Positions 60,769 to 61,420 of a stretch of DNA of 64,000 nt are shown here, in pieces. A program made the translations under genes and the position numbers. The DNA lies in the NCBI GenBank assembly GCA_964016885.1, contig CAXHJY010000886.1, positions 19,235-83,234 of the forward strand, given 5' to 3'. This DNA is from Eledone cirrhosa (lineage: Eukaryota). The number at the start of each line of letters is the position of its first letter. Position 1 is the stretch's first letter. The notes under the pieces are model-generated. The model saw only the letters and a program-made list of their open reading frames with translations, did no database searches and was not told the DNA's origin.

Positions 60769-60795
60769 CATATATATATACATATATATATATAT
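59741..60795. repeat. Compound (TA)n microsatellite
   Basis: Low-complexity sequence. Confidence 0.97.
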
Positions 60796-61415
60796 AAACG
60801 GAAAAAATGAAACGATATTTCATTTCCACTCTTAGTACGGCTGTTACTTAAATATAAGTATGTACACGTACATACATATATGTATACCGACGTACAGTAG
60901 TATGTATATATATATATACATACATGCACACATATATATATGCACGTATGGATTCACCGAACATGTATACATATATGTATGTACGTGTACATACTTATAT
61001 TTAAGTAACAGCCGTACTAAGAGTGGGAAATGAAATATCGTTTCATTTTTTCCGTTTATCGTTTTCGGTGCACCCGGCCGATTAACCCACTCGATATGCA
61101 TATTGGGCTACTCAGCCGTTAATATGCATAAGGTAAGTATATACGTTCAACAATCTGGCAGGAAGGTATACGTTGCTGACGATAGCTAACAAGCTTGAAA
61201 CTAGTACAGCGTTCCTTTGTCAGTGTTGAACAAACGAGCAACGGTGGTTGCTAGACACTACGGCTTAATACGGGATGTTGTTTACAAACACACCGAGCAT
61301 TATAATAATGTTCGGTGAATCCATACGTGCATATATATATGTGTGCATGTATGTATATATATATATACATACTACTGTACGTCGGTATACATATATGTAT
61401 GTACGTGTACATACT

Positions 61416-61420
<5 letters not shown>
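60794..61420 (+). mobile_element. Non-autonomous Penelope-type/retrozyme-like element: 420-nt unit with 36-nt direct repeats, hammerhead, and inverted 5' segment
   Basis: Direct repeats 60965-61000 and 61385-61420; 60794-60964 is the reverse complement of 61308-61384 + repeat + 61001-61059; hammerhead at 61170; flanked by (TA)n. Confidence 0.6.
61170..61212 (+). ncRNA. Minimal type I hammerhead ribozyme
   Basis: ACGUUG-CUGACGA-uAGCuaacaaGCUu-GAAA-CUAG-UA|CAGCGU: 6-bp helix I, complete core, palindromic helix III (ACUAGU), GUA cleavage triplet. Confidence 0.8.

Follow-up and report, generated by a model that had tools for sequence, protein, structure and literature searches.

Insertions of Penelope-like elements (PLEs) are described in the available text of PMC8557442 as partial tandems in which an inverted 5'-truncated copy adjoins the upstream pLTR, with a tail of 30–40 bp that is often present at one end only and with (TA)n targeting that hides target-site duplications (TSDs). 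In the accessible part of PMC3846280, Pen2a_Av and cargo mobilized in trans are given this same layout. In vitro, the PLE protein cuts and extends both strands, and reverse transcription starts at two internal sites whose spacing equals the tail, a property described as unique to PLEs; the template of an autonomous PLE is a linear tandem RNA, and hammerhead cleavage is unneeded in vitro (PMC11167929). Meanwhile, animal retrozymes are considered, in the available text of Li et al. 2026 (bioRxiv 10.64898/2026.07.22.740005), to derive from PLEs, and PLEs had been named their likely mobilisers (Cervera & de la Pena 2020, available text of PMC7229834); arguments about the machinery behind the mobility of animal non-LTR retrozymes still rest on co-occurrence and on the phylogeny of pLTRs, which in Li et al. 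2026 come mainly from vertebrates. An active retrozyme locus consists of at least two consecutive hammerhead-bearing units (Li et al. 2026, same text), and solo monomers have been described as well (same texts of PMC7229834 and Li et al. 2026). A retrozyme-sized unit with the full PLE integration footprint links the question of what mobilises retrozymes with that of how PLEs acquire their tandem and inverted ends and what role their hammerheads play.

A locus of this kind was analyzed at positions 60794–61420 of the window, that is, of the whole 64,000-nucleotide stretch of Eledone cirrhosa DNA, and was classified as a retrozyme-like unit inserted in the manner of a non-autonomous PLE. The complete unit of 420 nt (61001–61420, + strand) had 38.6% GC, contained no ORF according to the ORF scan, and was predicted by circular folding to be highly self-paired. 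It was preceded on the + strand by R', a 36-nt 5'-truncated upstream copy (60965–61000) that matched 61385–61420 exactly with a period of 420 (exact-match analysis) and formed a partial tandem, i.e., a pLTR-like direct repeat. On the − strand, 60794–60964 was an inverted 5'-truncated copy containing 172 nt of the unit (B, R, and A1): its alignment with the reverse complement of 61308–61384, 61385–61420, and 61001–61059 joined in this order was identical in 171 of 172 columns, the sole difference between the arms being one 1-nt gap (GG versus GGG). The 3' part of the unit was made up of B' and R' (61308–61420, + strand; exact match and predicted fold), and its right terminus at 61420 ran into (TA)n. 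The left flank (59743–60793) and the right flank (61421–64000, reaching the window end) were both (TA)n/(TACA) target arrays by sequence. Thus, the direct repeat, the reverse-complementary segment, and the (TA)n sequence on both flanks that had been reported in the preliminary description were all reproduced.

The 3' end of the inverted copy corresponded to position 61059 of the unit and faced the left (TA)n array. Its source was the A1' segment (61001–61059, + strand), which is also the start of the unit and which, according to the run contigs and the predicted fold, contained a 10-bp hairpin (61027–61049) upstream of the recurrent 61059 terminus. The resulting tail was present at the left end only (60794–60851, − strand) and measured 59 nt minus one deleted base; it was recognized from the exact-match analysis and from two run X5 contigs in which the 61059 terminus gives way to (AT)n. 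The left and right outward ends were accordingly placed 59 nt apart on the unit. It is this 59-nt A1 tail that constitutes the meaningful asymmetry of the element, R being a plain 36-nt partial tandem copy. As a whole, the element comprised 1.09 units with one hammerhead, and no second consecutive hammerhead-bearing unit was present at the locus. The head-to-head join (60964|60965) showed zero microhomology, and fold-back self-priming at this point was rejected on a hand check as misfitting the junction letters. A 22-nt flank match resembling a TSD could not be distinguished from chance, being equaled at 9–31% of control positions in the same arrays.

These parts map directly onto the published PLE layout: the partial-tandem pLTR (the 36-nt R' before the full 420-nt unit), the inverted 5'-truncated copy lying head to head with the 5' end, a tail at one end only (59 nt, the printed range being 30–40 bp), a type I hammerhead located within the region of the terminal repeat, and an AT-rich/(TA)n target, which was also seen at the loose ends of run X5. 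Insertions of EN+ PLEs (Penelope/Poseidon, Neptune, Nematis, Hydra; Pen2a_Av, PAc) share the partial tandem, the adjacent inverted 5'-truncated copy, and the tail at one end, as well as a hammerhead near the 3' end, the AT-rich/(TA)n target, and the lack of a discernible TSD, whereas the present locus differs in having no RT/GIY-YIG ORF (none of the PLE type was found among the 69 frames of the window), a longer tail, a canonical rather than minimal hammerhead, and a join that is an imperfect palindrome with a 77-nt B spacer. Since the mirror-image end and the one-sided tail are typical of PLE insertions, the unit was likely copied by borrowed Penelope enzymes. By its sequence, what had been called an inverted circular junction is a PLE tail plus an inverted 5'-truncated copy, because the locus corresponds so closely to the published arrangement. 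The earlier claim that the join requires a circular or tandem unit therefore stands insofar as RNA of more than unit length is needed, but not as a special sign of a circle, the tail being standard for PLEs and linear tandem templates being documented. The element was borne out as non-autonomous, hammerhead-bearing, microsatellite-inserted, and Penelope-related, given the ORF-less unit, the type I motif, the (TA)n flanks, and the PLE layout.

By analogy, from the (TA)n bias and the hammerhead, a Neptune-type helper appears plausible; a Naiad helper is unlikely, since the available text of PMC8557442 reports for Naiad no canonical hammerhead and, in cephalopods, only Naiad remnants. Non-autonomous Chlamys PLEs such as MRC1 in the same text likewise lack an ORF, require a PLE, and produce both pLTRs and head-to-tail insertions, but they are green-algal, mostly without hammerheads, and use other microsatellite targets. 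Four exact-pattern collection scans returned 0 loci in metagenome contigs and 0 in viral contigs. A second, unrelated PLE-type insertion was observed about 1 kb away (59442–59742); its left arm (59442–59523) was the reverse complement of 59605–59686 with one mismatch, and about 56 extra nt were present at its right end only, on the side opposite to the tail of 60794–61420. A hammerhead core was sought in 59442–59742 and was not found. This design, repeated with other sequence, shows the arrangement to be a general one within the array.

The type I hammerhead descriptor matched the + strand of the unit at 61176–61206 (the core), within a motif spanning 61170–61212, with core segments 61176–61182 and 61197–61200, helix II at 61184–61195, and the predicted cut after 61206; the same descriptor gave 0 matches in 5,000 order-1 Markov controls of the unit, and the complete unit 61001–61420 contained a single hammerhead. 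Helices I, II, and III measured 6, 4, and 2 bp, respectively; helix II had U.U at its base, and helix III bore a palindromic cap. Judged by these helix lengths, the putative ribozyme is of the canonical metazoan type I layout, as presented in the available text of PMC4209133, and is other than the minimal form; the preliminary description was thus right in placing a hammerhead in the C segment of the unit and wrong in calling it minimal. The motif was borne by an extended helix I hairpin (61145–61231, + strand), the fold of which, when compared with shuffles, had a z of −3.07 on the + strand (2/200 shuffles) and −1.17 on the − strand, with helix probabilities of 0.78–0.98 in the predicted fold. 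Zero Rfam matches were obtained in the window at the gathering score, so that the ribozyme went undetected; at E ≤ 10, the interval 60700–61500 gave 87 matches, among which the hammerhead was absent and which, being mostly microRNA models on TA-rich hairpins, were rejected.

Across the family, the 43-nt hammerhead varied at five positions: N7, loop II, H17, and the two sides of a single helix I base pair. The variants of the cleavage base (H17) still satisfied NUH, and the only paired variable positions were mutual partners, with summed depths implying a mismatch at this pair in some copies. The chance of the variants sparing the 11 core bases was 0.21 when taken alone, and approximately 0.002 when taken together with every paired variable site varying with its partner, the latter being a post hoc figure in which phase is not visible. 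The U.U at helix II and the 2-bp helix III predict weak cleavage of the monomer; the same two features occur in axolotl HHR_Amex2 (available text of PMC7229834). When two hammerhead copies were folded together, the structure gained 5 kcal/mol over a pair of monomers but lacked the catalytic dimer fold.

With the unit read as a circle, the longest ATG-started frame was 53 codons, and the one stop-free frame of at least 75 aa over the element had zero Pfam matches, in agreement with the lack of an ORF stated earlier. The circular minimum free energy of the unit was −143.3 kcal/mol, as compared with −98.6 ± 5.7 kcal/mol for 100 dinucleotide shuffles, 0 of which were as low (z = −7.8); without the TA-rich part, z was −5.3. 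The predicted fold included a 24-bp stem pairing 61323–61346 with 61385–61408 and a 6-bp stem across the R'|A1' join (P = 0.96). It should be noted that the truncation and inversion points 61385 and 61308 and the run X1 joint at 61192 lay 0, 2, and 0 nt, respectively, from the loop-side start of a predicted hairpin 3' strand, where 4% of positions qualify at 0 nt and 21% within 2 nt; four other joint positions were off hairpin starts, and the coincidence is post hoc and based on small numbers.

Part of the stretch was contained in 19 of the 24 listed public runs, with at least half of its words present in five of them and small shares in X13–X19; no RNA run was listed among those containing it, which has no bearing on expression. 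The monomer 61001–61420 was aligned against four of the 24, including X1, X3, and X5, with the zone 61330–61420 skipped as repeat. In run X1, 6,187 contigs fell on the unit, of which 1,201 had an identity of at least 99%, 2,403 of 95–99%, 2,213 of 90–95%, and 370 below 90%; depth figures in the runs do not equal copy numbers. The raw Hi-C reads of X20, sampled at approximately 1/100, gave 0 reads on the unit. The 420-nt repeat is thus a large, variant-rich, and fairly young family, and the single-copy locus or misassembly that the preliminary description had named as grounds against itself fails in view of the 6,187 contigs of run X1. The window copy differed from the X1 majority at 5 of approximately 320 scored positions, and both arms carried the minority A at the equivalent of 61037, as would be expected if they were copied in one event. 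The youth attributed to the element earlier is supported for the multi-copy family; its dating from one indel between the arms is weak, since the arms were made in the same event and the indel may be a homopolymer error.

The order A1'-C-hammerhead was contiguous in contigs of three runs: A1' ran on into C in X1 records 1–2 and X5 record 15, and X3 record 10 covered 61003–61320 with no substitutions and 2 gaps. In the output displayed (15/137 loose ends, 21/6,240 records), the best-supported X1 loose ends were themselves divergent forms of the unit. X1 sequence continuing into something unlike the unit had a stated share of 0. Two X5 contigs ended at 61059 and continued into (AT)n, a third ended likewise with 2 mismatches, and X5 depth dropped about fourfold across this position. 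The contigs ending at 61059 lacked the gap at the GGG run and hence differed from the left arm of the window. A1' is therefore found at the ends of some copies and at the beginnings of others, implying that the family as a whole has a short permuted unit; with the zone 61330–61420 skipped in the alignment, the R'-to-A1' join is known from this locus alone. Loose ends and joints at 61001, 61003, 61018, 61082, and 61268 were rejected as independent insertions since their positions coincide with MseI or DdeI sites, which makes them probable Hi-C ligation products, as was the loose end at 61153, whose letters end like a restriction remnant. Two of the three strand-change joints were also on MseI/DdeI sites and may be Hi-C chimeras, while one head-to-head joint (X3, 61048/61174, depth 4) was off restriction sites.

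Taken together, the locus is best read, with a probability of approximately 0.78, as an ORF-less, high-copy 420-nt hammerhead repeat that was reverse-transcribed and integrated into (TA)n by the RT/GIY-YIG protein of an autonomous PLE from an RNA of more than unit length, most likely a circle. According to this model, transcription would yield tandem copies of the unit, from which cleavage by the hammerhead and subsequent ligation may produce a circle of 420 nt; the protein of an autonomous hammerhead-type PLE, acting in trans, would nick both strands of the TA target; and reverse transcription would start at two internal sites, the equivalents of 61059 and 61420, whose 59-nt spacing would leave the one-sided tail. 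One cDNA would stop after 172 nt and the other after 456 nt (1.09 units), the latter crossing the predicted cut site 61206|61207 and copying R twice, and the two 5'-truncated cDNA ends would then be joined head to head.

Mobilization by a LINE-type reverse transcriptase through twin priming, or satellite- or MITE-like amplification at the DNA level, with the hammerhead as a passenger in either case, is improbable. Twin priming gives head-to-head inversions in L1, which counts for a LINE-type origin, as does the 5'-truncated LINE, bearing an RVT_1 domain, that is found in this TA block; however, a poly(A) or simple LINE tail is absent, and blastn showed zero similarity between the unit and the LINE of the window. 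For DNA-level amplification it can be said that local tandem amplification of PLE termini is discussed in the available text of Li et al. 2026. Both variants are opposed by a main arm longer than the unit and by two different outward ends at a spacing of 59 nt, the arrangement held to be unique to PLEs in PMC11167929.

The view that the locus is what remains of an autonomous PLE after loss of its ORF at this site only, with no independent 420-nt element in existence, is less probable still: the contiguity of A1', C, and the hammerhead in three runs, the diverged units at the best-supported X1 loose ends with a zero share unlike the unit, and the predicted folding of the whole unit as one structure all argue against it, although it is very common for truncated PLE ends to carry just one hammerhead (available text of PMC4209133) and an ORF-bearing continuation could hide beyond the 15/137 loose ends and 21/6,240 records displayed. 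As for local DNA template switching or misassembly in the long TA array as the source of the inverted and repeated segments, long AT arrays do assemble poorly, the join 60964|60965 is known from the assembly, and the single indel sits in a homopolymer. Such an origin would nevertheless need two switches and a prior duplication of R; moreover, the left end coincides with the terminus of other, non-identical copies (X5), and the layout is that published for PLEs and recurs at 59442–59742 with other sequence, which makes this explanation the least probable of all.

Within the PLE model, the long arm, which crosses 61206|61207 and copies R twice, implies one of three templates: a ligated circle, a tandem transcript left uncleaved, or monomers between which a jump occurred; about half of the weight was given to the circle, some two-fifths to the tandem transcript, and about one-tenth to the template jump. 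The canonical conserved ribozyme, the strongly self-paired unit, and the predicted stem across the join count for the circle, as do the circRNAs shown for coral, mussel, and axolotl retrozymes (available text of PMC7229834) and the proposal of circles as PLE templates made in 2014 (that of PMC4209133). Against it stand the predicted weak cleavage and the Xenopus dimers, only 1/9 of which showed cleavage (available text of Li et al. 2026); the unprocessed RNA, being the main substrate of the anole PLE (PMC11167929), argues against the need for a circle. The fuller proposal, in which a very high-copy cephalopod retrozyme was retrotransposed from a ligated 420-nt circle by Penelope RT/GIY-YIG, with two fixed start sites 59 nt apart and truncations guided by the hairpins of the circle, is tentative and on balance rather doubtful. 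If the circle reading were true, the genome would preserve, in thousands of insertions, a record that connects retrozyme circles directly with the Penelope mechanism, and it would become testable whether cDNA crosses the ribozyme ligation site.

With metazoan non-LTR retrozymes, the unit shares the ORF-less length of 150–450 bp, GC below 50%, the canonical type I hammerhead, high self-pairing, and high copy number (available texts of PMC7229834 and Li et al. 2026); mussel retrozyme units, according to the same texts, measure 350–390 bp as compared with 420 nt here. It differs in that 1.09 units with one hammerhead are present and an array was not seen at the locus, which is therefore not an active retrozyme locus but at most a solo monomer, and was filed as a non-autonomous PLE-type insertion. 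It further differs by the inverted copy and the one-sided tail, neither of which is reported for retrozymes in the main text of PMC7229834 or of Li et al. 2026: in the available text, the word "inverted" is absent from the former, while in the latter "tail" is absent and "inverted" occurs only within a reference. In a literature search confined to article texts, a cephalopod retrozyme family or retrozyme inversions were not found, and the family may be catalogued already; the giant squid genome paper counted 235 hammerhead-1 loci without analysis of them (available text of PMC6962438). Non-LTR retrozymes and their proposed dependence on PLEs are published, whereas a retrozyme-type unit with a PLE integration footprint was absent from the examined portions of the literature. 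The locus is explained by known biology and, taken alone, gives no sign of a new element class. It is moderately useful for mechanism: a unit the size of a retrozyme, belonging to a very abundant family, here carries the integration footprint of a PLE, so that the question of the template can be tested. With its 420 nt and two defined termini, the unit offers a compact template for priming in vitro, and statistics of the junctions in many copies could distinguish circular from linear templates.

Several further features were observed in the window. The interval 42940–64000 was a TA/TACA microsatellite of approximately 21 kb in which at least five retroelement insertions had accumulated. It included a 5'-truncated LINE (48930–51410, + strand) with a 751-aa open frame (RVT_1, E-value = 2.8 × 10−30) and an island (55622–55845, − strand) with a hammerhead core from 55713 to approximately 55676 and a long helix II, which is likely another PLE stump. 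A second RT-like remnant (approximately 41900–42940, − strand) was split by the TA array. Outside the array, at 1496–1560 (+ strand), the hammerhead descriptor was also matched by a hammerhead-like core whose GAAA box is followed by an AT palindrome. A 290-aa open frame at 39702–40574 (+ strand) had zero Pfam matches and may encode a DNA-transposon-associated protein. Dual oxidase exons were recognized at 17393–17650 and 28838–29200 (− strand), one of them 81% identical to Octopus bimaculoides Duox, the sole match among seven candidates and weak evidence of a cephalopod host. An interspersed repeat resembling a SINE or LINE end occurred at 51657–51791, 52317–52439, 21303–21412, 848–912, and 15664–15706, its copies being 76–80% alike.
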